The notes under the pieces: generated by a model
Database searches by the model: none
The model's input: only the letters and a program-made list of their open reading frames with translations
What the model was told of the DNA's origin: nothing
IMG/VR virus record: IMGVR_UViG_3300009164_000055
Direction: 5' to 3' (one strand)
DNA from: a virus
Taxonomy: Duplodnaviria > Heunggongvirae > Uroviricota > Caudoviricetes
DNA: 64,000 nucleotides
Position numbers and translations under genes: made by a program
Part shown: positions 29,092 to 50,387 of the stretch, one piece after another
How positions within the stretch are numbered: position 1 is the first letter of the stretch
Layout of the letters: every line of letters begins with the position of its first letter

Positions 29092-29494
29092 GATTAATCT
29101 AAACAAGTATGCAGACTTCACATTTGAACTTGCATCACTTGCCAGCAAAGACCTACAGACATTGATTGCACGTCTGATTGAACTTGATCAACATGAAACT
29201 GTCAATATTCCATTATTGCTAACTGGTGCTTTTGGACTTGGTAGCGAGGGCGGTGAGTTTCAGGAAATCGTCAAGAAGATGTTATTTCAAGGTAAGCCCT
29301 TGAATGAAGACAATATTTTTCATATGAAGCGTGAGCTTGGAGATATTGCTTGGTATTGGGTAAATGCTTGTAATGCTTTGGGTATCGATCCAAACGAAGT
29401 GATCGCTGAGAATGTTGAGAAACTGAAGGCACGTTATCCTAGTGGTGCCTTTGATCCTTACTACAGCGAAAATCGCAAGGAAAATGACCTCTAA
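29084..29494 (+). CDS. mazG: MazG-like nucleotide pyrophosphohydrolase
   Basis: EGGEFQE...ELGDIAWYW...NVEKLKARYP = MazG EExGE / ELGD signature; start trimmed to ATG with SD. Confidence 0.8.
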   Translation: MSEINLNKYADFTFELASLASKDLQTLIARLIELDQHETVNIPLLLTGAFGLGSEGGEFQEIVKKMLFQGKPLNEDNIFHMKRELGDIAWYWVNACNALGIDPNEVIAENVEKLKARYPSGAFDPYYSENRKENDL

Positions 29495-30015
29495 TGTATC
29501 AGAGCATAGAATCTTCTCGTGGTATGTCTGGTGCTTTAAAATCTTTTGATAATACAGAACATAAGATTTATGATACCAAGGGCAAGGATGCCATGATATC
29601 TGTGCTCAATAAAAACTGTCCTCAATACAAAAATATCGAAAATCCCAACACCTTTGGCATTGATGTGCTTACCCTAAACAATAGCGGTAAGGTTGTCGGG
29701 TGTTGGGAAGTCGAAGTTCGTCATGGAAACTGGCAGGGAGATGTTTCATTTCCTTTCAGAGAAATCAATTGCATCGAACGCAAGGATTATCAATGGCGTA
29801 GGGACCAAGAATTTTTGGACAAGATACCATATGAGATGGCTGACAAATATAAGGTGTACTATGTACAGATGAACAGAGAATGCACCAGAGCAGTTATCAT
29901 TGATGGTGATATTATTCTCGATTACCCATTGAAAGAATGGAGAAATCGTAAAGCTGATGGCGAGTGCGTTAGACAAATTCCTATCTCAAAAACAATTCAA
30001 ATAAAATTGAGTTGA
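29494..30015 (+). CDS. hypothetical protein (possible nuclease fold; GIDVL...CWEVEVR)
   Basis: 173 aa. Confidence 0.35.
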   Translation: MYQSIESSRGMSGALKSFDNTEHKIYDTKGKDAMISVLNKNCPQYKNIENPNTFGIDVLTLNNSGKVVGCWEVEVRHGNWQGDVSFPFREINCIERKDYQWRRDQEFLDKIPYEMADKYKVYYVQMNRECTRAVIIDGDIILDYPLKEWRNRKADGECVRQIPISKTIQIKLS

Positions 30016-30040
30016 CACAAAAAACGAATCGTTTTATATT
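30012..30040 (+). promoter_or_regulatory. early-type sigma70 promoter TTGACA-N17-TATATT (family member P0)
   Basis: TTGACACAAAAAACGAATCGTTTTATATT; ORF-track N-terminal extension 30012.. is this promoter. Confidence 0.5.
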
Positions 30041-30068
30041 CTCTTTATCAAGACGAAAGGGAAATGAA

Positions 30069-30224
30069 ATGACCGTAAATGATTTGATCAATGCTCTTCA
30101 AGCTAACGTCGATAGCTACAAAGCAATCATCAGCAATCCTTCCAGTGATGCTGATCACGTCGAAAGACTGAAGCGTGTAGTTGTTGGATATGAAGCAGAC
30201 ATTCGTGAACTAAAAGGTGAATGA
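30069..30224 (+). CDS. small hypothetical protein (51 aa)
   Basis: ATG with SD AAAGGGAAAT downstream of P0. Confidence 0.35.
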   Translation: MTVNDLINALQANVDSYKAIISNPSSDADHVERLKRVVVGYEADIRELKGE

Positions 30225-30420
30225 TATGATCCCCTATAAAATCTTTAACGCTCCTGTCGATCCAAAGTGGCCAGACTATGGTTGCAACATCTACAAGGAT
30301 GAAGTCTTTGTTGAAGGTCGAATCTATTCCAACTATAGCGGAAACGCCATGATGGATGAAATGAAAGACCTTAAGAGATATGAATTCAAACCTGAAGATG
30401 GATACAAGATAGAATGGTAA
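30217..30420 (+). CDS. small hypothetical protein
   Basis: 67 aa. Confidence 0.35.
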   Translation: MNDMIPYKIFNAPVDPKWPDYGCNIYKDEVFVEGRIYSNYSGNAMMDEMKDLKRYEFKPEDGYKIEW

Positions 30421-30425
30421 AGAAC

Positions 30426-30456
30426 TCCCTCAGAGAAATCTGGGGGATTTTTTTTT
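30426..30456 (+). terminator. rho-independent terminator with GAAA tetraloop and T9
   Basis: TCCCTCAGA-GAAA-TCTGGGGGA then TTTTTTTTT. Confidence 0.65.
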
Positions 30457-30459
30457 ATG

Positions 30460-30488
30460 TTGACACGAATCACAAATGATTATATAAT
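30460..30488 (+). promoter_or_regulatory. early-type promoter TTGACACGAATCACAAATGATTA-TATAAT (P1)
   Basis: perfect -35/-10 consensus, 17 nt spacer, directly after terminator. Confidence 0.55.
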
Positions 30489-30517
30489 CACTTCATCAAG
30501 ACGGAAGGATATACATT

Positions 30518-31168
30518 ATGTCGATTTATCTTAGCATCAATCAAATTCATGAAATTGCCAACGAGAACGAAGTGTCTCTTCGGGTTGCTAACCTTTATGC
30601 TGAGTATGTTGCAAAGGCGAAGGAAAAGAATATGGTCCTGAAGATGGGCCGTAATACGCTTCGTGATAGCACCCGCCAGAAGACCTATAACGCCGAAAAC
30701 AAGTTCATGGCAACTCATGGTCGTGGTGTATGGTTCACCACTGTAGAGGAAGCTCAGAAGTTTGCTGACAAGGTGTTTGCTTCGAAGGTGTGGGAAAAGC
30801 ATAAGACCAATCGTGTCAGCAGCACTTCACCCCGCATCGAATATTCTAACAAGATGACTCGCTACAGCGGGATGGCTTATAGCAATCGTATCACCCTTAG
30901 TCGTAACGGGATGAACGCATACATCCTGCTTCATGAACTGGCGCACACCAATGGCCATCGTCATCACGACTCAACATTCCGTAAGTGCCTCGTTGCCTTT
31001 GTCACCAAGTTCATGGGCAAGGAGCAGGGTGAACTTCTCAATAAGCACTTCAAGGATGCTGGTCTTAAGATGACCGTTCCTACCATCAAGTCGGTGAAGG
31101 AATTCAAAGATTGGCACATCATGTTCAAGCGCATGGAAACTGCACGTCAGGTAAAAAATAATTATTAA
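30518..31168 (+). CDS. putative zinc metallopeptidase-like protein (HExxH)
   Basis: ILLHELAHTNGHRHHD motif; GC-richer codon usage than neighbours. Confidence 0.4.
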   Translation: MSIYLSINQIHEIANENEVSLRVANLYAEYVAKAKEKNMVLKMGRNTLRDSTRQKTYNAENKFMATHGRGVWFTTVEEAQKFADKVFASKVWEKHKTNRVSSTSPRIEYSNKMTRYSGMAYSNRITLSRNGMNAYILLHELAHTNGHRHHDSTFRKCLVAFVTKFMGKEQGELLNKHFKDAGLKMTVPTIKSVKEFKDWHIMFKRMETARQVKNNY

Positions 31169-31176
31169 ATTGTTTG

Positions 31177-31205
31177 TTGACACGAATCAACGAATCGACT
31201 ATTGT
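31177..31205 (+). promoter_or_regulatory. early-type promoter TTGACACGAATCAACGAATCGAC-TATTGT (P2)
   Basis: conserved TTGACACGAATCA box; weaker -10. Confidence 0.4.
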
Positions 31206-31235
31206 CATTTCACAGACAGAGAAAAGGAATTCAAA

Positions 31236-31577
31236 ATGCAAATCACGGTTATTCATAAAGACTTCGAAACCAACAAGCAGGAAGCTGTTGCCGTTGTTAC
31301 CTTTAATGGTACTGATATCATTGCTGGTCTTGATTATGCTTATCGTTGGACCAATAATCTTGATGGTTCATGGTCGCAGGGTGAAGAGTTTGCAATGGAC
31401 GGTCAACTCTATGATAATCCTGACTTCAACGAGAACGTCAAGGTTCTGGCTCCTCTGCGTAAGTTCATGGGTCGTACCATTGGTCATCGCTCTTCGTCAG
31501 TTGGCGATACGATGATTGTCGATGGCGAAGCATACAAGGTTGCTTCATTCGGTTTTGAAAAGATGGAAAACGCTTAA
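31236..31577 (+). CDS. hypothetical protein
   Basis: ORF-track TTG extension lies in promoter; ATG with SD GAAAAGGAA. Confidence 0.4.
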   Translation: MQITVIHKDFETNKQEAVAVVTFNGTDIIAGLDYAYRWTNNLDGSWSQGEEFAMDGQLYDNPDFNENVKVLAPLRKFMGRTIGHRSSSVGDTMIVDGEAYKVASFGFEKMENA

Positions 31578-32101
31578 TGGGTAAGCGTTCAGACTTCGAT
31601 AGGGTAGAGAGAGATTTCTACCCTACACCCATGAAGGCTGTGCTTCCTTTACTTCCACACCTAAAACCAGAAAGCTGGTTCATTGAGCCTTGCGCTGGTG
31701 ATGGTCGCCTTATAGATCATCTACAGGCGCATGGGCACAGGTGTACGTATGGTGTCGATGTTGAACCCATATGGCCTATTCAAAGGGTTGGTGATGCAAC
31801 TTCGATGCAGTATAATCATGGCGAAAATGATTACTTCATTACCAATCCACCATGGGACAGGAAAATACTCCATCCTATGATTGAAAATCTCAGCAACCAG
31901 TTGCCCACGTGGCTTTTGTTTGATGCTGATTGGATGCACACAAAACAAGCCGTACCCTACTTGACACGTCTCATAAGGGTTGTTAGTATCGGAAGGGTAA
32001 AATGGATAGAAGATAGCAAGTCTGTCGGAAAAGACAATTGCTGCTGGTATCTGTTCTGGCATAAGAATGTCTCGCAAACGCAATTTTTTGGAAAGATTTA
32101 A
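31577..32101 (+). CDS. small DNA N6-adenine/N4-cytosine methyltransferase (motif I EPCAGDG, motif IV NPPW)
   Basis: 174 aa; FIEPCAGDGRL and FITNPPW. Confidence 0.55.
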   Translation: MGKRSDFDRVERDFYPTPMKAVLPLLPHLKPESWFIEPCAGDGRLIDHLQAHGHRCTYGVDVEPIWPIQRVGDATSMQYNHGENDYFITNPPWDRKILHPMIENLSNQLPTWLLFDADWMHTKQAVPYLTRLIRVVSIGRVKWIEDSKSVGKDNCCWYLFWHKNVSQTQFFGKI

Positions 32102-32102
32102 T

Positions 32103-32315
32103 ATGAAGATGTGGTTGATACTTTGGTTCTTCAATCTGGATGGTCAATACATTCAGAAAGTGGAGCTTCCCTATAAAAACCGTGTAGAGTGTGTACAGGC
32201 TGCTGGTAATATGGCTAAGAAGTTTGTAAATAAATCATTCGCAATCTCTGCATTCTGTGTTACCGATAACCACCATAAGGGATTGACGATTGATCCCGGC
32301 GTACCAATGGACTAA
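32103..32315 (+). CDS. small hypothetical protein with hydrophobic N-terminus
   Basis: ATG directly after upstream stop. Confidence 0.3.
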   Translation: MKMWLILWFFNLDGQYIQKVELPYKNRVECVQAAGNMAKKFVNKSFAISAFCVTDNHHKGLTIDPGVPMD

Positions 32316-32325
32316 GGAATTTATT

Positions 32326-32502
32326 ATGACTGAAGGTTTGATCAGAATTGAACATCACATGTACAAGTCTTGGATTCGTGAGAATCCAGAGATTGCTATG
32401 CGTAGGATGATGGAACATCATAATAAGATGATGGGCCTTGGTATGATGGTTCGTGTCGAAGAAGACGAACATTATTATGATGTAATTGGAGAAAAGATGT
32501 GA
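32326..32502 (+). CDS. small hypothetical protein
   Basis: SD AAGGA upstream of ATG. Confidence 0.3.
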   Translation: MTEGLIRIEHHMYKSWIRENPEIAMRRMMEHHNKMMGLGMMVRVEEDEHYYDVIGEKM

Positions 32503-33626
32503 ACTACGATTTCCCTATCATCAATAACATTAGTGACGTGCTTCCTGCTATTGAAGGTAGGGATGAGTTCACTGTGGCCGTCAAGGAAGGCTACACTGTC
32601 ATCAACTATAACGTGATGATGAGTGATACCTTTGACTGCCCCATTCGCCGTGAGTGTCGTGGTATCATCTTCGACACTGCTTCTGGTGATATCATTCGCC
32701 GTCCCTTCCAAAAGTTCTTCAACGTGAATGAGCGTGAAGAAACTCAGGATCATGTGGTCGATCTATCACGTCCTCACGCTATCCTTGAGAAGCTTGATGG
32801 TTCAATGATAGCACCTTTCATTGTGAATGGTCAAATGATCTGGGGTACGAAGATGGGCGCTACTGACGTGGCAAAGCCTGTTGAGGAGTTTGTGAAGAAC
32901 AATCCAGATTATCAATTTTTAGCTGAAGAAGCTATTAGCTATGGTTATACTCCAATCTTCGAATGGTGCTCTCGTAAGCAGCGTATCGTTCTTGATTATC
33001 AGGAAGACCAATTAATTCTCACTGCTGTTCGAAATATGACAACTGGTAATTATGCTTTTTTTAAGGCATGGAATCATCTTGTTCCTTTGGTTCGTGAATT
33101 CGATCCACAGACTGACATGAAGGAATTCATTGAGTATGTTCGTGGTCTAGAAGACCTAGAAGGCTTCGTGGTTCGTTTTGATGATGGCCATATGATCAAG
33201 CTGAAGTGTGATTGGTATGTCCAAATTCACAAGGCGAAGGAAGCTATTCTACAGGATCGCAACATCGTTGAGTTGATCCTTGACGATAAGTTGGACGATA
33301 TCAAGGCGCACCTTCCTGCTGAAGATCGTGATCGCCTGACTTACTTCGAGTCTCAGATTAACAGTCGTATTCTTGATAGGTCTGCTCATCTTTCTGATGC
33401 AACAAATACTGAACAGGATTTGGGTGATCGTAAATATTTTGCTCTAAACCGTGCACAAGAATATAACTCATATTCTAAGGCGATTGTGTTTGCTCTTTGG
33501 GATGACAATTCTTATGAGCGTTCTTCAGAATTGGTTCGTAGAACTGTTCGTAATAATCTTGGTCGTACTACCAAGTGGGAAGAGTTGCGTGATCATTGGT
33601 TTGAGGGAGTAACTTATAATGGATGA
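32499..33626 (+). CDS. rnlA: RNA ligase 1 (T4 RnlA type)
   Basis: ECRGIIFD, QKFFNVNERE and nucleotidyl-lysine motif KLDGSM parallel T4 Rnl1 ECRGIMFE/KFFNLNE/KEDGSL; 375 aa. Confidence 0.75.
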   Translation: MNYDFPIINNISDVLPAIEGRDEFTVAVKEGYTVINYNVMMSDTFDCPIRRECRGIIFDTASGDIIRRPFQKFFNVNEREETQDHVVDLSRPHAILEKLDGSMIAPFIVNGQMIWGTKMGATDVAKPVEEFVKNNPDYQFLAEEAISYGYTPIFEWCSRKQRIVLDYQEDQLILTAVRNMTTGNYAFFKAWNHLVPLVREFDPQTDMKEFIEYVRGLEDLEGFVVRFDDGHMIKLKCDWYVQIHKAKEAILQDRNIVELILDDKLDDIKAHLPAEDRDRLTYFESQINSRILDRSAHLSDATNTEQDLGDRKYFALNRAQEYNSYSKAIVFALWDDNSYERSSELVRRTVRNNLGRTTKWEELRDHWFEGVTYNG

Positions 33627-33792
33627 ATACCCCATGATTGCCCTTTGGATGGGAAAGCCCCTGACATATTATACCAAAGAAGAGCTTATTGAAATTGTCA
33701 CTACGCTAGGACGTGAAGTAGAATCAGAACGTGCTAGACATAAGGCAACATTGGATGTATGGTCTTCTATGCGAAAGAGACAAGAGGCATAA
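33619..33792 (+). CDS. small hypothetical protein (57 aa)
   Basis: below ORF-track cutoff; overlaps rnlA end. Confidence 0.25.
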   Translation: MDEYPMIALWMGKPLTYYTKEELIEIVTTLGREVESERARHKATLDVWSSMRKRQEA

Positions 33793-33793
33793 A

Positions 33794-34030
33794 GTGAAGA
33801 AGTATAGAATTAAAGAAAAACTAGACGGATCGTGGAAGGTAGAGCATAAAGGATTTTTAGGGTTCTGGGTCAACTCTGTTGATGATTATTATGGTAGCCC
33901 CAATAACAAATGGACATATTATCAATGCAAAGATTATATTAAAAGGCGACACGAGATAGCTGCCTTTAAGCCAAAGATTTTATATCCTCCGTTTCCAGAT
34001 AGTGACCCAAACTATGGTCATGGTGTTTAA
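33794..34030 (+). CDS. hypothetical protein (GTG start)
   Basis: ORF track 33731.. trimmed; SD AGAGG upstream. Confidence 0.3.
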   Translation: MKKYRIKEKLDGSWKVEHKGFLGFWVNSVDDYYGSPNNKWTYYQCKDYIKRRHEIAAFKPKILYPPFPDSDPNYGHGV

Positions 34031-34047
34031 TTTAAAGGAAAAACGAA

Positions 34048-34524
34048 ATGCCTAAGTGTACAATTCTTGTCGGTGTTCCTGCCTCTGGTAAGTCCACGTG
34101 GGTTCAGGAAAACATGTCTGAAAGGACATGGGTTGTCTCGACTGATAATATTATTGAAAGTCTTGCTACGAGGTATGGCTTTACATATAATGAAATCTTT
34201 AAGGAAACGATTCGCTTTGCTGATATGGTAATGGTAAAGCATATGATCATGAATGCTGAAATTGGTTATGATTTGATCATTGATCGTACTAATCTTTCTG
34301 AGAAGAGCCGCCATCAGTTTATCACTAAGCTGAAAAAGTATGGCTATACCTTTGATGCTATGGTTTTTGAAACCCCTGAAAAGGAAGAGTGGAGCCGCCG
34401 CCTGACAAACCGTGACGGCAAGACCATTCCTGCTGAAGTTTTGAAGAAGATGCAGGATAGCTATGAGATACCCCTATATTCTGAAGGTTTCGAGAATATC
34501 AATTTTATTGAAAATAATTGTTGA
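34048..34524 (+). CDS. pnk: P-loop polynucleotide kinase (T4 Pnk kinase domain only, no phosphatase domain)
   Basis: ILVGVPASGKSTW, LIIDRTNLSEKSR, and C-terminal region align with T4 PseT N-terminal kinase domain; adjacent to rnlA. Confidence 0.6.
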   Translation: MPKCTILVGVPASGKSTWVQENMSERTWVVSTDNIIESLATRYGFTYNEIFKETIRFADMVMVKHMIMNAEIGYDLIIDRTNLSEKSRHQFITKLKKYGYTFDAMVFETPEKEEWSRRLTNRDGKTIPAEVLKKMQDSYEIPLYSEGFENINFIENNC

Positions 34525-34549
34525 CACGAATCACAAATAGTTTTATATT
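34521..34549 (+). promoter_or_regulatory. early-type promoter TTGACACGAATCACAAATAGTTT-TATATT (P3)
   Basis: identical 29-mer to P4. Confidence 0.55.
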
Positions 34550-34578
34550 GTGATCCTCAATAGAAAAAGGAACACCCT

Positions 34579-34860
34579 ATGGAAAAGACTTTTAATTTTC
34601 ACTCTGATTGTGGTCATGGTTGGTTGGCTGTTAAGATTGCTGATCTGAGCAAGGTCAATCTGCCACTGAGCGATATCAGCAACTATTCTTTTGTTCGAGG
34701 CAAGACCTTATATCTTGAAGAAGATTGTGATGCACCTAAGTTTATAAAGGCTTATGAAGCCACTTACGGTACATGCATGAAGTATGTTGAAAAGCATACT
34801 AGCCGTAGCACTATTCGCTCTTATGATGGTGTTTGTACACTTCGTCGTATTGCTGCTTAA
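34579..34860 (+). CDS. hypothetical protein
   Basis: 93 aa, SD AAAAAGGAA. Confidence 0.4.
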   Translation: MEKTFNFHSDCGHGWLAVKIADLSKVNLPLSDISNYSFVRGKTLYLEEDCDAPKFIKAYEATYGTCMKYVEKHTSRSTIRSYDGVCTLRRIAA

Positions 34861-35002
34861 AAGTTACCAACCACAAACCTTAAATGGCCGACATTCTCAG
34901 CGGCCACGAAGGGTATCCACCGGAAGGAACAAACGCCATTGTGAGTTGGCATATTTTTTTGGCGTGAATGGGTACCAATGAGAAACTTTTTGGAGATATA
35001 TT

Positions 35003-35458
35003 ATGCGTGTTGCAGTTGAATATGATCAGTATTGTAATGAAGATTATCACTCAGGTGAACAGTATGGTGAATGGAGAACTAGTTTTAGTTCGTCAGTAAC
35101 TGGCGTTCGTGTGCTTGGTGAAAAAGAAAAGGCTGAATATACCAGTGAGGTTTTTATTCTTCCTGATGATGCCACCACAGCCTACGTTGTCTATATGATC
35201 TATAGCAGCGGTGATAGCTTTGGTAATTCTAACGGAAACATCGATATCATTCATTGCACTTCTAGCTCTGAAAAAGCACATGAACTAGCAAAGAAGATCA
35301 CTGAAAACTCAGAAGATTTCACAATTAAGTTCATTGATGATTTTGATCGTGAAATCAGCATTCACAACAACGGTGCTGGCTACTTCGAACATATTGATTA
35401 TGTTGAAGTTCTTTCGTTTGATCTAAATGGTCAACCTCGTCGTTATCGTGTGAACTAA
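35003..35458 (+). CDS. hypothetical protein
   Basis: 151 aa. Confidence 0.4.
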   Translation: MRVAVEYDQYCNEDYHSGEQYGEWRTSFSSSVTGVRVLGEKEKAEYTSEVFILPDDATTAYVVYMIYSSGDSFGNSNGNIDIIHCTSSSEKAHELAKKITENSEDFTIKFIDDFDREISIHNNGAGYFEHIDYVEVLSFDLNGQPRRYRVN

Positions 35459-35481
35459 AAAAAAAACAAAAAAATGTTTGA

Positions 35482-35536
35482 CAGTCCTTTCCGACTTATG
35501 TAGAAGAAATTCAACAGAGACGGAAAGGACTTTTTT
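35482..35536 (+). terminator. long-loop hairpin (11-bp stem AGTCCTTTCCG/CGGAAAGGACT) + T6, overlapping a TTGACA -35 box
   Basis: perfect inverted repeat followed by TTTTTT immediately before ATG 35537. Confidence 0.45.
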
Positions 35537-35851
35537 ATGATCAAGTTTATCGCAATCAAGGAAGACGGTAAGTACAAGCATCAGTACAAGATTGTATCTG
35601 AAACGAACCGAGGTTACACCTTTGGCCGTATTCGCTTCGAACCTACTGGTCCCAAGGGTGCTGGTTGGAATGTTCGTTGCAGCGAATGTGATGAAGACCT
35701 TGAAGATGCAGTTCGTGCCAAGTTCATCCAGCATGGTCGCCGCTTTCCTATGAAGAAAGCAATGGAGCTTTTCGCTGAAGCTCAACAGGAACTGGAAATG
35801 GAATATCGTGCAGAGAAAAATAATTGGGAAAAAATGTACGAGGCAGCATAA
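35537..35851 (+). CDS. hypothetical protein
   Basis: 104 aa; GC-richer codons. Confidence 0.4.
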   Translation: MIKFIAIKEDGKYKHQYKIVSETNRGYTFGRIRFEPTGPKGAGWNVRCSECDEDLEDAVRAKFIQHGRRFPMKKAMELFAEAQQELEMEYRAEKNNWEKMYEAA

Positions 35852-35857
35852 AAAGCT

Positions 35858-35886
35858 GTTGACACGAATCACAAATAGTTTTATAT
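35858..35886 (+). promoter_or_regulatory. early-type promoter (P4), identical 29-mer to P3
   Basis: TTGACACGAATCACAAATAGTTTTATATT. Confidence 0.55.
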
Positions 35887-35915
35887 TCTCTTCATAGAAA
35901 CGAAAGGAACCCCAC

Positions 35916-36269
35916 ATGGGCGTTTATCAGTACACACTCCGCAAGGAAACTAAGACTGTCGATGGCACCAAGATTGGCCGCTATGGCTATGCTTACAAGC
36001 ATTCTTATTTCCGTCACTACAATCAGGACCGCTATGCTACAATGTACAACCGTCTGGTTGGCAGCGTTGAAGCAGCCGCTGATCGTGCTTTTGAAGCTAA
36101 CTCCGATCTGGAATATGCTGCAATCGGTGAATGGAAGTATGCCAGTGAAGATGAAGGTCTGACTGTCATCAAGGTCAAGAATTCTTCGTTTGCTGACGAT
36201 ACTGCTAATCATGAAGTGGTCGGCTTCTTGAAGAAGCAAGGTCGTAAGTTTAAGTTCGTCAAAAAGTAA
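35916..36269 (+). CDS. hypothetical protein
   Basis: 117 aa. Confidence 0.4.
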   Translation: MGVYQYTLRKETKTVDGTKIGRYGYAYKHSYFRHYNQDRYATMYNRLVGSVEAAADRAFEANSDLEYAAIGEWKYASEDEGLTVIKVKNSSFADDTANHEVVGFLKKQGRKFKFVKK

Positions 36270-36291
36270 GAAACTCAAAAGGAATTATATT

Positions 36292-36897
36292 ATGGGTACA
36301 CGTCATCTTATCGCAGTGCAGAAGAACCATGAGTACAAGGTCGCTCAGTATGGTCAGTGGGATGGTTATCTCTCTGGTCAGGGTGATAGCATCCTTAAGT
36401 TCTTCCATAGAACCGATCTTGAAGCATTCCGTGCCAAGGTTGATAACTGCTTCTATGGTACTCAGGAACAGATTGATGAGGCATACACACCATATACCAA
36501 TGGTGATGGGTGGATGACCTTTAAACAGTCTGCTGAGTTTAAGAAGTCAGAATTCGGTCATATTGGTCGTGATACTGGCTCTGAAATTCTGAGTGTTATT
36601 CTGAATTCAGATGGTCCACTTATGTTGATTGATCAGATTGATTTCGCCAAGGAATCTTTGTTCTGTGAATATGCCTACGTGATCGATCTGGACGATAACG
36701 TCCTTGAAGTCTATCAAGGTTTCAACAAAGAACCACTTCCTGATAGTGCACGTTTCACTGGCACCTCTAAGGATAATGGAGAATATCAGGCTGTGAAGCT
36801 GGTTGCTTCTTTCCCACTTGGAAACCTGCCTGAGAACTTTGATGAGCTTGAAAAGGAACTTTATCCTGATGAAGTTTATGATGAGGATGAAGGATAA
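36292..36897 (+). CDS. hypothetical protein
   Basis: 201 aa. Confidence 0.4.
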   Translation: MGTRHLIAVQKNHEYKVAQYGQWDGYLSGQGDSILKFFHRTDLEAFRAKVDNCFYGTQEQIDEAYTPYTNGDGWMTFKQSAEFKKSEFGHIGRDTGSEILSVILNSDGPLMLIDQIDFAKESLFCEYAYVIDLDDNVLEVYQGFNKEPLPDSARFTGTSKDNGEYQAVKLVASFPLGNLPENFDELEKELYPDEVYDEDEG

Positions 36898-36915
36898 AAA
36901 AAATTAAAATTAGTT

Positions 36916-36944
36916 GTTGACACGAATCACAAATAATTTTATAA
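36916..36944 (+). promoter_or_regulatory. early-type promoter TTGACACGAATCACAAATAATTT-TATAAA (P5) with A-rich UP element
   Basis: preceded by AAAAAAATTAAAATTAGTTG shared with P6. Confidence 0.5.
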
Positions 36945-36950
36945 AGGTGT

Positions 36951-37020
36951 CACTGAGCGGGGAACGAATGGTCTTTCGTAAATTGGCAGATGCCTAAGTG
37001 GACTTCCCCGCTTTTTTTTT
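36951..37020 (+). ncRNA. candidate small RNA / transcription attenuator: multi-hairpin element closed by GCGGGGAA/TTCCCCGC and T10, lying entirely downstream of P5 TSS
   Basis: promoter then ~70 nt structured RNA then TTTTTTTTTT then SD+ATG of 37035 gene. Confidence 0.3.
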
Positions 37021-37034
37021 GAAAGGAATACATT

Positions 37035-37223
37035 ATGCGTATTGGTGAAAAGTATACATTCAAGCGGTTCAAGAAGACCATTGGTCGCCGCCCTGTTGGT
37101 GAAGTTGTTCGTAAGGCTGGTGCTCTGACTTATTTCAAGAAGAGCAATGGTGAAATAGTTCCCATTCAAACCCGCTTCATCGAATACTACTATGTCTATC
37201 TTCCTAACAAGAAGGTGGCGTGA
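37035..37223 (+). CDS. small basic hypothetical protein
   Basis: 62 aa. Confidence 0.35.
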   Translation: MRIGEKYTFKRFKKTIGRRPVGEVVRKAGALTYFKKSNGEIVPIQTRFIEYYYVYLPNKKVA

Positions 37224-37224
37224 C

Positions 37225-37584
37225 ATGGACGAATATAAACATTTATTTGATGAACATATGGCCTATTTTACTAGGCATAATGGTAAAAAAGGACCACGTG
37301 GTACAGATGACGATGTTTTCATCATCATCTATGGTACTGGTAATTTTGGTGTCCTCACAAAAAGTGATATGGACCTTCTTAAATGGGAAGATGGCGATGT
37401 TGAAGATTTTGCAGGTCAGGCAAATCCTTTTATGGACTATATGCAGATAAAAATTCTTGCATACTGTAACATTACAAAATTTCTCATAGAAGATTCTATG
37501 GAATTGAAAGAAGAATTCACCAAAGAAAATATTGTTAAAACTCGTGAAGAACTTCATCGATTTCATCGTTACGATCCTTGGTGA
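37225..37584 (+). CDS. hypothetical protein
   Basis: ORF track 37192 trimmed to ATG after upstream stop. Confidence 0.35.
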   Translation: MDEYKHLFDEHMAYFTRHNGKKGPRGTDDDVFIIIYGTGNFGVLTKSDMDLLKWEDGDVEDFAGQANPFMDYMQIKILAYCNITKFLIEDSMELKEEFTKENIVKTREELHRFHRYDPW

Positions 37585-37612
37585 GAAGACTAAAAAAAAC
37601 TAAAATTAGTTG

Positions 37613-37641
37613 TTGACACGAATCAAAAACTATTCTAAAAC
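37613..37641 (+). promoter_or_regulatory. early-type promoter TTGACACGAATCAAAAACTATTC-TAAAAC (P6, weak -10)
   Basis: same UP element + -35 box as P5. Confidence 0.4.
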
Positions 37642-37691
37642 CAATTCATCAGATGGCGATGTGCCACTGACTACTTGAAGGAAATTATATT

Positions 37692-38654
37692 ATGTCTCAT
37701 GAACTTGAAATGCTCAATGGCGTTGCTCAGATGGCTTACGCTGGTGAAACCCCTTGGCACGGTCTTGGTGTTAAGGTTTCGAATGACCTTACCCCTGATC
37801 AGATGCTTAAGGCTGCTGGTCTTGATTGGTCGGTTAGCAAGGCTCCTGCCTTCGTCAACATCGATGGTGAACAGGTTGATATTGGCCGTTCGGCACTGAT
37901 CCGCAACACGGACAACAGCATTCTGGATATCGTCTCTGACGATTGGAACCCTTGCCAGAACACTGAAGCTTTCGAATTCTTCAATGACTTCGTTGCTGCT
38001 GGTGACATGGAAATGCACACTGCTGGTTCGCTCAAGGACGGCAAGATTGTTTGGGCTTTGGCTAAGGTCAAGGATAGCTTCGAACTCTTTGGTGGTCGTG
38101 ATCAGGTCGATGCTTACCTGCACTTCACCAATCCTCACCAGTATGGTCAGTCGATTGACGTTCGCTTCACTCCAATTCGTGTTGTGTGCAACAACACCTT
38201 GACCCTCTCGCTCAACATGAAGAGCAAAAATATGGTCAAGATCAGCCATGCACGTCAGTTTGACGGTGACATGGTGAAGGAAGCTCTTGGCGTTGCCAAG
38301 GAAAAGCTGAGCACCTACAAGGAAATGGCTCAGTACCTGTCGCAGAAGCGTTTCAGCAATGAGAACATTGTTGACTACTTCAAGCGTGTCTTCCCTGTTG
38401 TTACGACTAAGGAAGAAGCAAAGAAGGAACTGTCCCTCAATGCACGTACCGCTCTAGAAGCCCTCCACATCCAGCCTGGTGCTGAACTTGGCGAAGGTAC
38501 ATGGTGGCAAGCTTTTAACGCTGTGACCTTCATGACCGATCACGTCATGGGTCGTACCGCTGACAACCGCCTCCACAACGCATGGTACGGTGTCAACAAG
38601 AACCTTAAGACCAAGGCTCTTCAGACCGCTGTAGAGATGGCTGAAGCATCCTAA
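37692..38654 (+). CDS. DUF932-family protein (MxHELE...TPWHGLG N-terminus)
   Basis: 320 aa; conspicuously GC-rich codon usage vs genome, suggesting horizontal acquisition. Confidence 0.45.
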   Translation: MSHELEMLNGVAQMAYAGETPWHGLGVKVSNDLTPDQMLKAAGLDWSVSKAPAFVNIDGEQVDIGRSALIRNTDNSILDIVSDDWNPCQNTEAFEFFNDFVAAGDMEMHTAGSLKDGKIVWALAKVKDSFELFGGRDQVDAYLHFTNPHQYGQSIDVRFTPIRVVCNNTLTLSLNMKSKNMVKISHARQFDGDMVKEALGVAKEKLSTYKEMAQYLSQKRFSNENIVDYFKRVFPVVTTKEEAKKELSLNARTALEALHIQPGAELGEGTWWQAFNAVTFMTDHVMGRTADNRLHNAWYGVNKNLKTKALQTAVEMAEAS

Positions 38655-38660
38655 TTGGAA

Positions 38661-38688
38661 GGGGGGAGAAATCCCCCCAACCTTTTTT
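38661..38688 (+). terminator. rho-independent terminator GGGGGG-AGAAAT-CCCCCC + T6
   Basis: perfect G6/C6 stem. Confidence 0.65.
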
Positions 38689-38689
38689 G

Positions 38690-38718
38690 TTGACAGACCT
38701 GATTTACTCAGCTATTGA
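38690..38718 (+). promoter_or_regulatory. promoter TTGACA-N17-TATTGA (P7)
   Basis: directly follows terminator (PeSL-like arrangement). Confidence 0.4.
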
Positions 38719-38731
38719 AGGTTTAACGAAA

Positions 38732-38977
38732 ATGGAGTGTGACATGATTGCTCTTAGCAAACTTGATAATCCCGGTTTAGTTAAAGAACTTAACAAATGG
38801 AAAGATGTTGAGTTTCGTATCGACAATGCAGGTAAGCACATTAAGTTCTATCTGACTGTCAACAACAAATCACGGTTTGTTCTTTTCTCAAAGACAATCG
38901 GTGATTGGCGAGGAAAACACCGCCAAGTGTCTGATGTACGTAAGACACTAATTGAACTTGGCGCTGAAAAAAAGTAA
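38732..38977 (+). CDS. hypothetical protein
   Basis: start trimmed to first ATG downstream of P7. Confidence 0.35.
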   Translation: MECDMIALSKLDNPGLVKELNKWKDVEFRIDNAGKHIKFYLTVNNKSRFVLFSKTIGDWRGKHRQVSDVRKTLIELGAEKK

Positions 38978-38987
38978 AGGAAATAAT

Positions 38988-39209
38988 ATGTCTGAATCAA
39001 GTTCTGTATCAGTAAACTTTCCCTTCTTGGGAATTCTCACCCTGATCTTTATCACCCTTAAGCTCACTGGTCATATTGCATGGTCTTGGTGGTGGGTGCT
39101 TGCTCCTATGTGGATTCCTCTGGCAATCATTCTTGGTATTGGTATCATCGTTGTAATTATTGCTATGATTACTGGCGCTAACATCAATGTTAGGAAGCGT
39201 AAGCCATGA
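38988..39209 (+). CDS. small integral membrane protein (2 TM, Trp-rich)
   Basis: 73 aa after trimming to ATG with SD AAAGG. Confidence 0.4.
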   Translation: MSESSSVSVNFPFLGILTLIFITLKLTGHIAWSWWWVLAPMWIPLAIILGIGIIVVIIAMITGANINVRKRKP

Positions 39210-39418
39210 AGATTTCTATGAAATACGCTGCATTGCCTTTGGGTGCATTTGCAGTGTTCTTCCTAATACCCAAACTATTTCAGTTTCTGATCAATGCACA
39301 CTCAGATTTTGGAATTGTAATTGCTGTTACCGTTGTGTGCGTTATCGCCAGTATTGTTATTGGTGTAATTAACAAAATTATGAAATCCACCAAAAAGGAA
39401 AATGTTAATGAAGATTAA
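39206..39418 (+). CDS. small integral membrane protein (2 TM)
   Basis: 70 aa. Confidence 0.4.
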   Translation: MKISMKYAALPLGAFAVFFLIPKLFQFLINAHSDFGIVIAVTVVCVIASIVIGVINKIMKSTKKENVNED

Positions 39419-40235
39419 GAATATCGTTCTGGTTGCTCTTGCGGCTCTCTCACTTGCCGCATGTAGTCGTGTCGAACCGGGTCATGTTGGTATCAAGGTT
39501 GACCAGTATGGTTCATCTGCTGGTGTTGCCGCCGAATCTCTTCCAGTTGGTACATACTTTACTGGACCAGGCACAAGCATCTATGAATATCCAGTGTTCA
39601 CCAATACGTACACATGGACAAAGGATACTGAGGAAGGTTCTGCTTCAAATCAGGAATTTAGTTTCTCTGATAAGAATGGTATGACCGTCACCGCTGATGT
39701 TGCTGTTAGCTATCATGTTGATGCGACTAAGGCTCCTATTCTGTTCCAAAAGTATCGTACTGATATGGATGGTATTGTTGCTGGTCCTATGCGTGTTGCT
39801 ATTCGTGACGCTATCAACCAAGAAGCTAGTGGCATGACAGTAGAAGAAGTCTATGGTTCACGTAAGGCGGAACTTATCACTAAGTCGCTTCTACGTGTTC
39901 AAAAGTTCTTTGCTCCTTTTGGTCTGAATGTTGAACAGCTTTATTGGGCTTCACCAGTACGTGTCCCTGATCAAATCAAGGCACAGATCAATCAGAAGAT
40001 TGCTAACGAACAACAGGCTCTAGCCGCTCAGGCTAATGTTGCTACGGCAGAAGCTAATGCTCGTGCAAGAGTTGCTGAAGCAGAAGGTCGTGCTAAGGCT
40101 ACACAGATTGAAGCAAATGCTATCTCTTCAAATCCGCAGATTCTTACTCAGCGCATGATTGAAAAGTGGGATGGTCATTATCCTCAGTATGTTGGTGGTG
40201 GTATGCCTTTGCCTACCATTGCTATCAAGAAGTAA
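39402..40235 (+). CDS. SPFH/band-7 (prohibitin/HflC-like) lipoprotein
   Basis: signal peptide with lipobox LAAC; SPFH core; Ala/Gln-rich coiled C-terminus typical of band-7. Confidence 0.6.
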   Translation: MLMKIKNIVLVALAALSLAACSRVEPGHVGIKVDQYGSSAGVAAESLPVGTYFTGPGTSIYEYPVFTNTYTWTKDTEEGSASNQEFSFSDKNGMTVTADVAVSYHVDATKAPILFQKYRTDMDGIVAGPMRVAIRDAINQEASGMTVEEVYGSRKAELITKSLLRVQKFFAPFGLNVEQLYWASPVRVPDQIKAQINQKIANEQQALAAQANVATAEANARARVAEAEGRAKATQIEANAISSNPQILTQRMIEKWDGHYPQYVGGGMPLPTIAIKK

Positions 40236-40249
40236 AACCATACATAATG

Positions 40250-40282
40250 ATACCCTCAGCAGCAATGTCGGGGGTATTTTTT
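40250..40282 (+). terminator. putative terminator
   Basis: ATACCC...GGGTAT stem then TTTTTT. Confidence 0.4.
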
Positions 40283-40295
40283 ATAAAAATAATGC

Positions 40296-40324
40296 TTGAC
40301 TTATTTCTAAAAGTATGTTATAAT
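40296..40324 (+). promoter_or_regulatory. sigma70 consensus promoter TTGACT-N17-TATAAT (P8)
   Basis: exact hexamers. Confidence 0.5.
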
Positions 40325-40357
40325 GGTTTATAAGGTCAATTGAAGAGGAACTTAAAC

Positions 40358-40510
40358 ATGTATGCTTTTGATAAGTGGAGAGCCGAAAATTCCGAAACTC
40401 TTGATTCGGATTTGATATACGGAAAGTTTACTAGAGATCAATTACAGATTTTATTTTCATGGATGGAATCTGCTTATGAGGCTGGATTTGATGATGGCAG
40501 CGAAACATAA
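40358..40510 (+). CDS. small acidic hypothetical protein (50 aa) forming a stand-alone promoter-ORF-terminator unit
   Basis: SD GAAGAGGA upstream; flanked by P8 and terminator 40580..40604. Confidence 0.35.
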   Translation: MYAFDKWRAENSETLDSDLIYGKFTRDQLQILFSWMESAYEAGFDDGSET

Positions 40511-40579
40511 ACTCTGATAAGAGAGATTTATGATATTCTTATCAAGAAGTAAAAACTCACATCATAGCACAGAAAAAAG

Positions 40580-40604
40580 GGGGGAGCAATCCTCCCTTTT
40601 TTTT
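40580..40604 (+). terminator. putative terminator GGGAG-CAATC-CTCCC + T8
   Basis: short GC stem, 8 T. Confidence 0.4.
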
Positions 40605-40639
40605 GTTTTGATAAATAATACAAACCTAATGGAGAAACC

Positions 40640-41107
40640 ATGAAAACTTTTAAAGAATTTTTTGATGAGGCTACTAGAACTATTGATAGAGCATTAAAGC
40701 TTGGTGATCGATTAGCTGACAAATCAAAAAAAGATTGGGTAAAACAACCACCAAGCTATATGCAGAATAAAGCGTTGTCTTCACCATCACACAAACTGAT
40801 AAGCGGTTCTAAACCAGATTATACTGGAATGAGTGCATATAAAGCTAAGGCTGAAAGAGGCACAGACGTATTTGATCCAAAAATTAATGAACCAAATAAA
40901 ACACGAATTGATATAAAAAAATTAATCCCATCACAAGCCTTTACTGATTGGAATTCTAAAAAGGCAAAAGAAAAAATCAATGATGAAAATCCTATTTTAG
41001 TACTACATCATAACAATAAGCATTATGTTATAGATGGTCATCATAGAATTGTAGCAGCGAGACTTAAAGGTGATACTCACATAATCGCAAATATTCAGAA
41101 AGTATAA
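40640..41107 (+). CDS. ParB-like nuclease-domain protein with capsid-targeting-like N-terminus (MKTFKEFFDEA)
   Basis: C-terminal HYVIDGHHRIVAARLKG = ParB/Srx DGHHR motif. Confidence 0.55.
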   Translation: MKTFKEFFDEATRTIDRALKLGDRLADKSKKDWVKQPPSYMQNKALSSPSHKLISGSKPDYTGMSAYKAKAERGTDVFDPKINEPNKTRIDIKKLIPSQAFTDWNSKKAKEKINDENPILVLHHNNKHYVIDGHHRIVAARLKGDTHIIANIQKV

Positions 41108-41111
41108 TATA

Positions 41112-43659: not shown

Positions 43660-43854
43660 TCATTTTTCTTTTGGAAATATTTCAGGATATCTTTCATACA
43701 TACAGTAATATAATACAGTGCCTCTAAGCTTGCTATAAAATGTTGTCTGTTCTTTACCGTCCATCATACACTCATACTTAGATGGATGTACGTGAACAAT
43801 CCTTGCCTTTAAATCTCCATTATAAAAAATGTAAGCAATCATCCACCAAGTCAT
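43660..43854 (-). CDS. small hypothetical protein, last gene of minus-strand operon
   Basis: ATGA overlap with cyclase stop. Confidence 0.35.
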   Translation of the reverse strand: MTWWMIAYIFYNGDLKARIVHVHPSKYECMMDGKEQTTFYSKLRGTVLYYCMYERYPEIFPKEK

Positions 43855-49832: not shown

Positions 49833-49839
49833 GAATTTC

Positions 49840-50386: not shown

Positions 50387-50387
50387 T

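Follow-up and report, generated by a model that had tools for sequence, protein, structure and literature searches.

Candidate early promoter-leader cassettes sharing a conserved spacer box in a T4-type phage

Early promoters of T4 follow an extended sigma70-type consensus with upstream A-tracts. Like the candidate promoters described here, they are strong host-polymerase promoters that carry information beyond the two hexamers and stand at the start of many short early units composed of small genes; they differ in their GTTTAC-type -35 hexamers, and a spacer box of the CGAATCA type is not known to us from T4. Promoter-early-stem-loop (PeSL) cassettes have been described in the T4-type phages RB49/phi1, T4/PST and KVP40/nt-1 (Arbiol 2010, PMC2839356; Comeau 2014, PMC4122927) and comprise an AT-rich stretch, sigma70-type -35 and -10 elements, a Shine-Dalgarno sequence and an ATG (PMC4122927). 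In Caulobacter, GcrA boxes lie within the -35/-10 spacer of host cell-cycle promoters (Haakonsen 2015, PMC4647560; Wu 2023, PMC9976885), centred at -20±1 and -30±2, and the solved complex used GAATC at -22..-18 (PMC9976885). Sinorhizobium phage phiM12 (NC_027204) carries a homologous early promoter-leader family of at least 15 copies in 100 kb, of which no description was found in the literature searched. As here, the phiM12 copies have an AT-rich upstream stretch, the form TTGAC(A/G)-N17-TA(A/T)TTT and a purine-rich leader, ATCATAGAGAGAACGAAAGAG, that aligns with TTCATAGAAACGAAAGGAAC of the DNA analysed here. In phiM12, however, it is the upstream stretch that is strongly conserved, and the spacer is variable (often GGAATTT or CGAATTCG).

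The window, the whole stretch of 64,000 nucleotides that was analysed, belongs to an uncultured T4-type phage, apparently of lake-metagenome origin. This agrees with the initial annotation: the gp61-type primase matches 2413 T4-like records, late promoters TATAAATA occur 10 times on the + strand and never on the - strand (six copies just 5′ of genes, none within 30-39 kb), and contigs sharing the cassettes encode gp21-22-23, gp47-46 and gp44. The primase is about 45% identical to those of the nearest cultured T4-like phages, indicating a distant lineage. An oligonucleotide signature is common to the window and the cassette-sharing contigs (GANTC at 0.63-0.65 of expectation, CCNGG depleted, no CGCG).

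Eight sites had been listed as sharing TTGACAC(G/A)AA, a box and 17-nt spacers. The spacer is readable at all eight, and seven sites form one family, with 30012 as a diverged relative. TTGACACRAA was found exactly at 30012, 30460, 31177, 34521, 35859, 36917 and 37613, all on the + strand; the coordinates first given were mostly right, 35858 and 36916 being off by one. The 13-mer TTGACACGAATCA has six exact copies, all on the + strand, versus 0.21 expected (0 of 100 shuffles reached six). The sites are all intergenic and co-oriented with the genes, and they share one layout: a stretch of AT-rich DNA upstream, then TTGACA, a spacer of 17 nt and the -10 hexamer, followed in five sites by an ATG at 28-30 nt, a distance set by the conserved leader. 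A uniform TAT(A/T)(A/T)T hexamer did not hold up: it is present in only four of the eight, the others reading TATTGT, TATAAA, TAAAAC and TATTGA, and two family members have a poor -10 that lacks the final T (TATAAA, TAAAAC). The identity of the 29-mers at 34521 and 35859 was verified (31 nt with the preceding TG included), and the A-rich upstream stretch attributed to 36917 and 37613 is indeed common to both, over 34 nt with one mismatch, or at 86% over 56 nt. Roughly 20 sigma70-like promoters occur in the window; the box is found in only about seven, clustered within 7.6 kb.

The eighth site, 38690 (TTGACAGACC...TATTGA), was rejected as a family member. It has no CGAATCA box, and its TTGACA is homologous to codons within a 75-aa ORF still present there in the close strain L060; the site is a deletion scar, the remnant of that deleted ORF. 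At P30012, the 17-nt spacer carries ACGAATCG in distal position, the box being displaced by 7 nt, and the stop codon of the upstream ORF falls within the -35 hexamer, as does that of the kinase gene within the -35 of P34521. The placing of GC-rich terminator hairpins directly before the listed sites was borne out at 30426 and 38661 but not at 35482, where the hairpin overlaps the promoter-like site 35478 and is separated from 35859 by gene 35537-35851. The composite element at 35478 is kept in L015 and L027, although the upstream genes differ in all three.

Coordinates and parts of the promoter sites and neighbouring features in the window
Feature	Position	Strand	Parts
P30012, diverged family member	30012..30071	+	TTGACA 30012-30017, TATATT 30035-30040, leader, ATG 30069
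Intrinsic terminator	30426..30456	+	terminator at 30426-30447, 9-bp stem plus T9; z -3.95; ends the 30069-30420 unit, directly 5′ of P30460
P30460	30460..30520	+	TTGACACGAATCAC...TATAAT plus leader, ATG 30518 (HExxH protein)
P31177	31177..31238	+	TTGACA, tandem boxes CGAATCA + ACGAATCG, TATTGT, leader, ATG 31236; unit includes DNA methyltransferase, RNA ligase and polynucleotide kinase genes
N6-adenine-type DNA methyltransferase	31577..32101	+	EPCAGDG ... NPPW; in P31177 unit
P34521	34521..34581	+	TTGACACGAATCACAAATAGTTTTATATT plus leader, ATG 34579
Other composite element	35478..35539	+	TTGACA, 11-bp stem 35483-35531 enclosing a -10-like hexamer and sequestering the Shine-Dalgarno sequence, T6, ATG 35537; z -4.6
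P35859	35859..35918	+	29-mer as in 34521, leader TTCATAGAAACGAAAGGAAC, ATG 35916
696-nt insertion/deletion unit	36917..37612	+	P36917 (-10 TATAAA), leader hairpin with T9 at 36953-37022, ORFs 37035-37223 and 37225-37584
P37613	37613..37694	+	TTGACACGAATCAA...TAAAAC (weak -10), 50-nt leader, ATG 37692 (DUF932 protein)
DUF932-unit terminator and 38690 site	38661..38718	+	terminator 38661-38678, then ORF remnant

Selection on the promoter parts was assessed with orthologs in three relatives, four-fold degenerate sites (0.56-0.68 identity) serving as the neutral reference. The -35 was identical at 53 of 54 ortholog positions and the first seven bases of the spacer, CGAATCA, at 61 of 63 (p=6e-11), so that conservation of the box equals that of the -35 (97% versus about 62% neutral). 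The -10 (49/54) and the leader (166/207) were also compared; the upstream stretch, identical at 141 of 225, was at the neutral level. These comparisons show the box to be held constant by selection as tightly as the -35. The box occurs singly or as tandem heptads (ACGAATC-ACGAATC). Orthologs of P30012 have diverged, reading ACGAATCG, TCGAGTCG and AAGAATCA, and loci chosen by gp46 homology, not by motif (L050, L054 and L055), contain TTGACA-nnnnnACGAATCAnnnn-TATGAT. The box therefore recurs in otherwise unrelated promoter spacers of the clade and is a separate cis-element.

Taken together, the sites are probably seven paralogous early promoter-leader cassettes with a selected spacer box and occasional crossover inside the copies. 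To judge from their anatomy, we infer host-sigma70 early cassettes of the PeSL kind, whose published anatomy and mechanism they match. Host sigma70 RNA polymerase would recognise TTGACA, a perfect -35, and the -10 hexamer that follows after 17 nt, probably assisted by the AT-rich upstream stretch, and would produce short transcripts with a conserved 21-23-nt purine-rich leader carrying the ribosome-binding site. A small early transcription unit would start at each cassette, the surrounding region consisting of genes that vary and are mostly of unknown function, and intrinsic terminators would end a few of these units. The box would most likely be the contact site of a putative protein that tunes or times early transcription.

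The likeness to PeSL cassettes extends to the T4-type genome, the order AT-rich stretch, sigma70-type -35, N17, -10, Shine-Dalgarno and ATG, the clustering among small ORFans in a variable region, and some indels or replacements between relatives with crossovers inside the promoter. The PeSL architecture proposed earlier was thus upheld for the promoter half and the setting among small ORFs, mostly of no known function. It was not upheld for the stem-loop half: the upstream stem-loop that defines PeSL cassettes stands at only one of the seven family members. The locus further differs in its distant lineage and in its 7-bp spacer box, which is absent from the PeSL descriptions (PMC2839356, PMC4122927). 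As had been noted, genes at 30-38.8 kb exceed the rest of the window in GC content (GC3 0.41 versus 0.32, p=2e-5). Their reading as recently imported morons does not fit, because the GC-richest protein genes of the window (DUF932, HExxH protein and ORF 35916) keep 77-94% amino-acid identity throughout the clade and the genes that vary between relatives are AT-rich.

What the box binds admits several readings. A tentative one, also put forward initially, is that it serves as operator for a regulator encoded by the phage, for instance an early shut-off repressor or a polymerase-associated factor marking a promoter subclass; the virion would bring this protein in, or it would be produced early. 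T4-type phages reprogram sigma70 polymerase with small phage proteins. The box abuts the -35 and is equally strongly conserved, it comes as one or two tandem heptads, and it defines only a subclass of the sigma70-like promoters. Selection on the box suits a regulator site, but the MotA-type variant failed: the sites have TTGACA without a mismatch as their -35, and the five TGCTT-type matches of the window all fall inside coding sequence. Against a regulator, no candidate box-binding or other DNA-binding protein was found among the window ORFs scanned, and the box stands at several spacer positions (-26, -20, -19), an uncommon feature in a classical operator.

An epigenetic GcrA-type element in a CcrM/GcrA-bearing alphaproteobacterial host is unlikely, and any link between the box and GcrA is speculative. 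Host CcrM or the phage methyltransferase would N6-methylate the GANTC within CGAATCA, and the sigma70 cofactor GcrA would read TGATTCG on the opposite strand and promote open-complex formation on phage DNA that enters fully methylated. The reverse complement of CGAATCA is exactly TGATTCG, which fits the GcrA consensus YGAKTCK (PMC4647560). L050-type promoters place GAATC exactly at -22..-18, as in the solved complex, and it lies at -21..-17 in box 2 of the clade consensus, P31177 and P30012. GANTC is retained in orthologs while other bases vary (e.g. GAATC to GAGTC) and occurs in 11 of the 20 sigma70-like promoters of the window versus about one expected; with paralogs removed, the figures are 5 of 14 versus 0.7 (p=0.001). 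Across the window it is depleted to 0.64 of expectation and enriched twofold in intergenic DNA, a signature reported for CcrM-bearing Alphaproteobacteria (PMC3973325). The genome of phiM12 is likewise depleted (0.61), and that of Melnitz, a betaproteobacterium phage, much less so (0.88). For the window methyltransferase, possibly relevant to GANTC in the box, 39 homologs were found in phages, almost all of which infect Alphaproteobacteria. However, the centre of the best-conserved box copy falls near -26, in the gap separating the two positions permitted to GcrA, and this copy is 7 bp, not about 10 bp, from box 2. GC content and the best DUF932 and cyclase matches (Melnitz) fit freshwater Methylophilaceae equally well. 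Only 5 of 20 phiM12 promoter spacers contain GANTC, though the host of that phage has CcrM and GcrA, and most have GGAATTT or CGAATTCG instead. The depletion could be mere restriction avoidance, as with CCNGG, which is depleted too, and CGCG, which is absent, and the match was noticed only in hindsight. A search of the compared loci with an approximate GcrA sequence found no homolog.

It is also improbable that the box binds no factor, its constancy reflecting an intrinsic spacer effect on sigma70 polymerase (DNA shape or contacts by the -35) or homogenisation by gene conversion. Promoter strength is modulated by spacer sequence, the copies are paralogous and recombine, and the leader and -10 are conserved too. 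Yet the distal spacer and -10 variants are group-specific (for example, TATTGT throughout the four orthologs of P31177, and TAAAAC in two) beside an invariant box, which argues against frequent homogenisation, and an identical 8-mer occurs at a different spacer position in promoters without other similarity.

As to crossover inside the cassettes, comparison with relatives revealed three indels that end within such promoters. At the boundaries of the 696-nt unit stand the two copies of a 34-nt direct repeat (36896-36929 and 37592-37625), composed of the upstream A-rich stretch, -35 and box. The window, L061 and L063 have the unit, L060, L062 and L027 lack it, and L015 has another ORF in its place; L060 and L062 (93-97% identical to the window) carry one hybrid promoter versus the window's two flanking the 696 nt. 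P30460 is chimeric, its -35 and box resembling P8630 of L002 and its -10 and leader a different promoter (TTGACTC...TGTATAAT) that precedes the HExxH gene in L002 and L015; the 3-4 ORFs between these two promoters in L002 and L027 are missing in the window. In L028, two promoter-leader copies flank an inserted 173-aa ORF. These three events show that, the cassettes being direct repeats of 35-60 nt, phage recombination sometimes crosses over within them and deletes or inserts the genes between two cassettes.

The modular gene shuffling ascribed to the cassettes was supported by these indels but not by break frequency, as synteny breaks showed no excess at promoter junctions (11/19 versus 12/23 at promoter-less junctions of the same region, Fisher p=0.48). 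Many indels lie at plain stop/start junctions or other short repeats, e.g. a 21-nt repeat around 40249-40539. Nor was there any sign of transposition, since cassette positions are mostly orthologous and stable in the relatives, four ortholog groups occupying the same place in all of them. Cassettes that are truly mobile in the strict PeSL sense, excising with their ORFs as mini-circles, as shown experimentally for RB49 and phi1 (PMC2839356), inserting at other cassettes and driving most turnover, are quite unlikely despite the three promoter-bounded indels, one polymorphic between near-identical strains, given the unenriched junctions, the fixed ortholog groups, the indels elsewhere and the finding of no other context in IMG/VR for the ORFs of the 696-nt unit. 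Crossover at the paralogous promoter-leader cassettes is a by-product of the repeats and not the main source of gene turnover here.

Near-identical promoter-leader copies, an arrangement that sometimes serves as a recombination site, are already known. The new point is the strictly conserved 7-base spacer box CGAATCA.

Seven exact copies of TTGACACRAA, all on the + strand, were found in the 30–39 kb region, bearing out, for seven of its eight sites, the array of near-identical promoters proposed in the initial annotation. At every site TTGACA was separated by 17 nt from a -10-like TAnnnn hexamer, and the 13-mer TTGACACGAATCA occurred in six exact copies in the window versus 0.21 expected from shuffles. 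The sites at 34521 and 35859 shared an identical 29-mer, and an A-rich upstream stretch was common to those at 36917 and 37613 (86% over 56 nt). The distance from the -10 to the ATG was 28–30 nt at five of the seven sites and 50 and 89 nt at the other two; the five carried a conserved leader, ctcTTCATcaAgAcgaaAggaa, which includes AAGGA. Given this fixed spacing and the conserved leader, the repeated unit reaches from the start codon back to about -60. The sites were intergenic or overlapped just a stop codon, and their orientation was that of the genes.

Positions of promoters, hairpins and other features in the window
Feature	Position	Strand	Detail
Family promoter P30012	30012	+	-10 TATATT
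Family promoter P30460	30460	+	-10 TATAAT
Family promoter P31177	31177	+	-10 TATTGT
Family promoter P34521	34521	+	-10 TATATT
Family promoter P35859	35859	+	-10 TATATT
Family promoter P36917	36917	+	-10 TATAAA
Family promoter P37613	37613	+	-10 TAAAAC
Stem-loop directly 5′ of P30460	30426-30447		
Compact hairpin promoter	35478-35539		promoter-inside-hairpin design
Compact hairpin promoter	63765-63823		promoter-inside-hairpin design
Leader hairpin of P36917	36953-37022		60 nt, T9 after
Non-coding insert	34861-34996		136 nt, between ORFs 34579-34860 and 35003-35458
Unit with indel breakpoints in promoters	36917-37612		ORFs of 62 and 119 aa
Terminator-promoter-ORF module	40249-40539		292 nt; terminator 40252-40283, promoter 40296
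Genes variable between relatives	29494-30015, 33794-34030, 35003-35458, 37035-37584		ordinary or low GC
Cyclase-like gene	43851-45905	-	684 aa
tRNA cluster	49757-63750		18 tRNA genes; sigma70-like promoter 49717
TATAAATA near gene starts or intergenic	3717, 5379, 10889, 41985, 49495, 54073	+	
ORF starts directly 3′ of five of these	3752, 5583, 10931, 42032, 54109	+	

The seven sites belong to a known class, the repeated early promoter cassettes of T4-type phages (promoter-early stem-loop, or PeSL-like), here in a distant uncultured lineage. As published, a PeSL combines an AT-rich stretch and a -35 and -10 of sigma70 type with a Shine-Dalgarno sequence and start codon (PMC4122927), and the window sites were alike in these parts: an AT-rich stretch was followed by a sigma70-like -35 and -10 about 17 nt apart, with a Shine-Dalgarno sequence and start codon at the 3′ end of the element. 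All copies lay within 30.0–37.7 kb, a hyperplastic region in which most ORFs were without a family match and gene content was different in every relative; searches of PHROGs and Pfam returned no family for most small ORFs between 30 and 39 kb. Unlike PeSLs, the window cassettes mostly lacked the stem-loop half and carried in addition a selected spacer box, CGAATCA. The pairing of hairpins with promoters claimed in the initial annotation therefore held in part. Terminators did lie directly 5′ of 30460 and 38690, but P30460 was the only family member with such a stem-loop, and the hairpin at 35482 belonged to the 35478 element, whose stem-loop, like that at 63765, overlapped a promoter of another type. 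The site at 38690, formerly counted as an eighth member, lacked the box. In the close strain L060, whose DUF932 protein was identical to that of the window, the matching TTGACA fell inside a 75-aa ORF (codons AVDM) located after the DUF932 terminator and ahead of the following gene; the window has lost the first part of this ORF. In a region devoid of late promoters, the seven sites are most simply read as putative host-polymerase early promoters, which would head short units of small genes.

Relatives were gathered by an IMG/VR scan with the promoter pattern. The pattern TTGACACGAATCA-N10-TAT returned 47 loci, mostly from unrelated phages and about the estimated chance yield for 16 specified bases; among these the whole cassette was common to L002, L012, L015, L019, L027 and L028 only. 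Three were syntenic with the window (L015, ~86% nucleotide identity; L002, ~83%; L027, ~76%), and the contigs L012, L019 and L028 had the cassette alone in common with it. A near-identical cultured phage was absent, megablast of the region against INPHARED phages giving no match. Contig L061 (JGI 3300027969) was 99.986% identical to window 34692-41654, and the source samples look like lake metagenomes, judged from their names.

The window gp61-type primase matched 2413 T4-like records with a top identity of 45%. Gene content included ribonucleotide reductase subunits and thymidylate synthase, an RNA ligase 1-type enzyme and polynucleotide kinase, PhoH, exonucleases, a Dda-type helicase and 18 tRNAs. 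The T4-type late-promoter motif TATAAATA occurred ten times on the + strand of the whole window and never on the - strand; six copies were near gene starts or intergenic, five of them directly 5′ of + strand ORF starts, and none lay in 30–39 kb. Relatives of L019 encoded gp21-22-23, gp47-46 and gp44 and had the oligonucleotide signature of the window, which, together with the primase and late promoters, places the clade by gene content among the T4-type phages. Its capsid protein was nearest to those of Stenotrophomonas phage DLP6, pelagiphage Mosig, cyanomyophages and Sinorhizobium phage phiN3 (64–69% identity). Further features of these genomes included the cyclase-like gene, whose adenylate/guanylate cyclase-like product shared 37% identity with proteins of pelagiphage HTVC008M and Methylophilales phage Melnitz and which sits in a - strand block breaking up the + strand early genes. 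The tRNA genes were clustered among small ORFs, and a terminator with a sigma70-like promoter lay ahead of the cluster. On the reverse strand of L015 (~6290-8170) the RNA ligase gene was split, its 171-aa and 185-aa portions being separated by ~800 nt of small ORFs; an intron, a replacement or the insertion of a homing endonuclease could account for this.

A published account of the related phage DLP6 also describes repeated, conserved promoters (PMC5349666). In Sinorhizobium phage phiM12 (L057/L058, NC_027204) a homologous family with at least 15 copies in 100 kb had the form aaataatttcaaattccctg-TTGAC(A/G)-N17-TAATTT-caaatcatagagagaacgaaagag. The phiM12 leader aligned with that of the window cassettes, which suggests an old promoter-leader design common to the T4-like subgroup of phiM12 and the window.

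Selection on the parts of the cassette was assessed by comparing promoters 5′ of the same genes in the window and L015, L002 and L027. Four-fold degenerate sites of flanking genes were identical at frequencies of 0.68, 0.64 and 0.56, respectively, and the neutral level was taken as ~0.62.

Identity of promoter segments between the window and syntenic relatives
Segment	Identical positions	Fraction	p
-35 hexamer	53/54	0.98	2e-10
Proximal spacer (CGAATCA)	61/63	0.97	6e-11
-10 hexamer	49/54	0.91	2e-6
Leader	166/207	0.80	1e-8
Distal spacer	69/90	0.77	0.002
Upstream stretch	141/225	0.63	0.45

With nearly equal ortholog identities, the box is under as much constraint as the -35 itself. The -10 and distal spacer were particular to each ortholog group and retained within it, evidence against wholesale homogenisation of the copies. 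A fuller consensus in the relatives, TTGAC-ACGAATC-ACGAATC-ATTATATATT, contained two tandem heptads, the second of which (box 2) lies further into the spacer. At loci chosen by gp46 homology and not by motif (L050-type promoters), ACGAATCA was found within an otherwise unrelated spacer, TTGACA-ccataACGAATCAatgt-TATGAT, indicating that the box is a portable cis-element.

The box may be read by a phage-encoded factor, or may act through an intrinsic effect of the spacer; each is at least as likely as reading by the host regulator GcrA. According to the latter explanation, which we consider improbable, the box would be a methylation-read element (TGATTCG/GANTC) that wires the early promoters of a T4-type phage to the CcrM/GcrA epigenetic system of an alphaproteobacterial host. 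Fully methylated phage DNA entering the cell would then be the preferred template of GcrA-loaded sigma70 polymerase. Caulobacter GcrA has TGATTCG, the reverse complement of CGAATCA, as its top consensus (PMC4647560). Its elements within the -35/-10 spacer are centred at -20±1 and -30±2, with GAATC at -22 to -18 in the solved complex (PMC9976885); positions from +5 to +30 also count as GcrA sites. The flanks agreed with YGAKTCK, CGAATCA and CGAATCG being TGATTCG and CGATTCG on the other strand, although the match was spotted after the fact. GAATC stood at -22 to -18 in the L050-type promoters and at -21 to -17 in box 2, and from inferred start sites these elements were centred at -20 and -19, as expected for GcrA, but the main box was centred at about -26, which is neither GcrA position. 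Orthologs of P30012 kept GANTC while other bases changed (ACGAATCG, TCGAGTCG, AAGAATCA), and 11 of 20 promoter candidates contained GANTC versus ~1 expected; the homologous phiM12 promoters, however, mostly had GGAATTT or CGAATTCG instead. Across the window GANTC stood at 0.64 of expectation, only one of 16 comparable palindromes being more depleted, and it was twofold enriched in intergenic DNA. This combination is a signature of CcrM-bearing Alphaproteobacteria (PMC3973325) and the depletion was alike in phiM12 (0.61) and far weaker in the betaproteobacterial phage Melnitz (0.88), but the depletion may be a product of restriction avoidance. Homologs of the window methyltransferase (ORF 31577-32101) occurred almost solely in phages of Alphaproteobacteria, yet the host is possibly a freshwater methylophile. 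Searches with the methyltransferase gave neither a Pfam match nor a structurally solved relative that would point to its target sequence. An approximate N-terminal probe detected no GcrA homolog, either in the window or across 646 kb of related loci, a weak negative, and none of the papers searched tied phage early promoters to GcrA boxes. If GcrA does read the box, this would be a case in which the early promoters of a lytic phage respond to an epigenetic mark of the host.

A MotA/AsiA-like factor, suggested in the initial annotation, was rejected as reader of the box: a MotA box (TGCTT near -30 replacing the -35) was absent from the sites, their -35 was a perfect TTGACA, and all five window matches to TGCTTNA-N-TAnnnT fell within coding sequence. 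A CRP-like site (TGTGA-N6-TCACA) was likewise discarded, as the conserved CGAA would fall in the CRP spacer and the TCACA part was variable.

Other short words were also scarce. CGCG was absent from the 64 kb versus ~80 copies expected from base composition, and CCNGG stood at 0.34 of expectation; the cassette-sharing T4-core contigs L053 and L055 repeated the CGCG/CCNGG/GANTC pattern. These phages seem to be avoiding particular restriction or methylation sites.

Three indel events had breakpoints inside promoters. In the first, the unit 36917-37612, comprising a promoter, the leader hairpin and two ORFs, was flanked by a 34-nt direct repeat of upstream stretch, -35 and box. In strains L060 and L062 (93–97% identical to the window) it was replaced by one promoter whose left part resembled P36917 and right part P37613; L027 also had one promoter there, and L015 a different ORF. 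In the second, P30460 was a chimera: its -35 and box matched a promoter after the terminator in L002 and L027, and its -10 and leader matched a different promoter (TTGACTC...TGTATAAT) 5′ of the HExxH gene in L002 and L015. Three to four ORFs that separate the two promoters in L002 and L027 were missing from the window. In the third, a 173-aa ORF of L028 lay between two promoter-leader copies, of which L019 had a single one. The cassettes thus appear to serve sometimes as homology for recombination, as the PeSL model holds (PMC2839356).

The wider claim that the cassettes mediate modular gene shuffling fared less well. Every gene junction was tallied against the three relatives, compared over ~15-kb pieces of 49–99-kb contigs, and breaks were in no excess at promoters: 11 of 19 comparisons at promoter junctions versus 12 of 23 at promoter-less junctions of the same region (Fisher p=0.48) and 18 of 47 at all promoter-less junctions covered by the relatives (p=0.12). 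Indels elsewhere ended at plain stop/start junctions or other repeats. The 292-nt module, with a terminator, a promoter (TTGACT-17-TATAAT with TG) and a 50-aa ORF, was bounded on both sides by a 21-nt sequence of gene 3′ ends (tcaagaagtaaaa..acat), repeated in direct orientation; the close strains L063, L060 and L062 lacked the module. Four promoter ortholog groups held the same place in all relatives. The ORF 37225-37584 of the 696-nt unit had no relative in another context in IMG/VR and so gave no sign of mobility. Neither mobility of the cassettes nor a dominant part for them in gene turnover was supported.

Region genes were GC-richer than the rest of the window (GC3 0.41 vs 0.32, p=2e-5), as the initial annotation had noted in describing recently imported morons. 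The GC-richest, however, namely DUF932, the HExxH protein and ORF 35916, were conserved in all relatives (77–94% amino-acid identity), and genes variable between relatives had ordinary or low GC. Recent import was not supported; codon adaptation of well-expressed early genes may be an alternative cause.

About 20 sigma70-like intergenic sites were present in the window. The two compact hairpin promoters were of distinct design: TTGACA directly adjoins the 5′ arm of a strong stem whose loop contains the -10 and whose 3′ arm holds the Shine-Dalgarno sequence, followed by a T-run and ATG. The 35478 element was nearly identical in L015 and L027, with a different upstream gene in each. Read-through transcripts would be terminated or translationally silenced by the hairpin, and transcripts starting within it would remain translatable. 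Such logic is known for some T4 genes.

Several leader and non-coding elements were also seen. The hairpin predicted at the 5′ end of the P36917 transcript, closed by GCGGGGAA/TTCCCCGC (-25.9 kcal/mol, z -2.0), precedes the ribosome-binding site of ORF 37035 and could be a leader terminator/attenuator or a small RNA. The insert 34861-34996 ended in a weak hairpin and T7; L060 lacked it, its two ORFs being 11 nt apart. Neither element matched an Rfam family. At 40469-40604 a strong terminator stood at the end of a segment overlapping the 3′ end of the 50-aa ORF of the 292-nt module; its full-length Rfam match to PrrB/RsmZ was sub-threshold (27.3 bits vs gathering score 44, E=0.004) and probably spurious.

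The cassette architecture is ordinary for this phage group, and the box is a concrete lead. Gene turnover in the region took place mostly away from the cassettes, so these are more aptly regarded as conserved regulatory modules that at times provide homology. The PeSL picture of repeated early promoter cassettes as recombination substrates is widened to a distant uncultured T4-type lineage, with strain-level evidence for one event, and the CGAATCA box offers a testable handle on the control of early transcription in T4-like phages without a MotA-type system.
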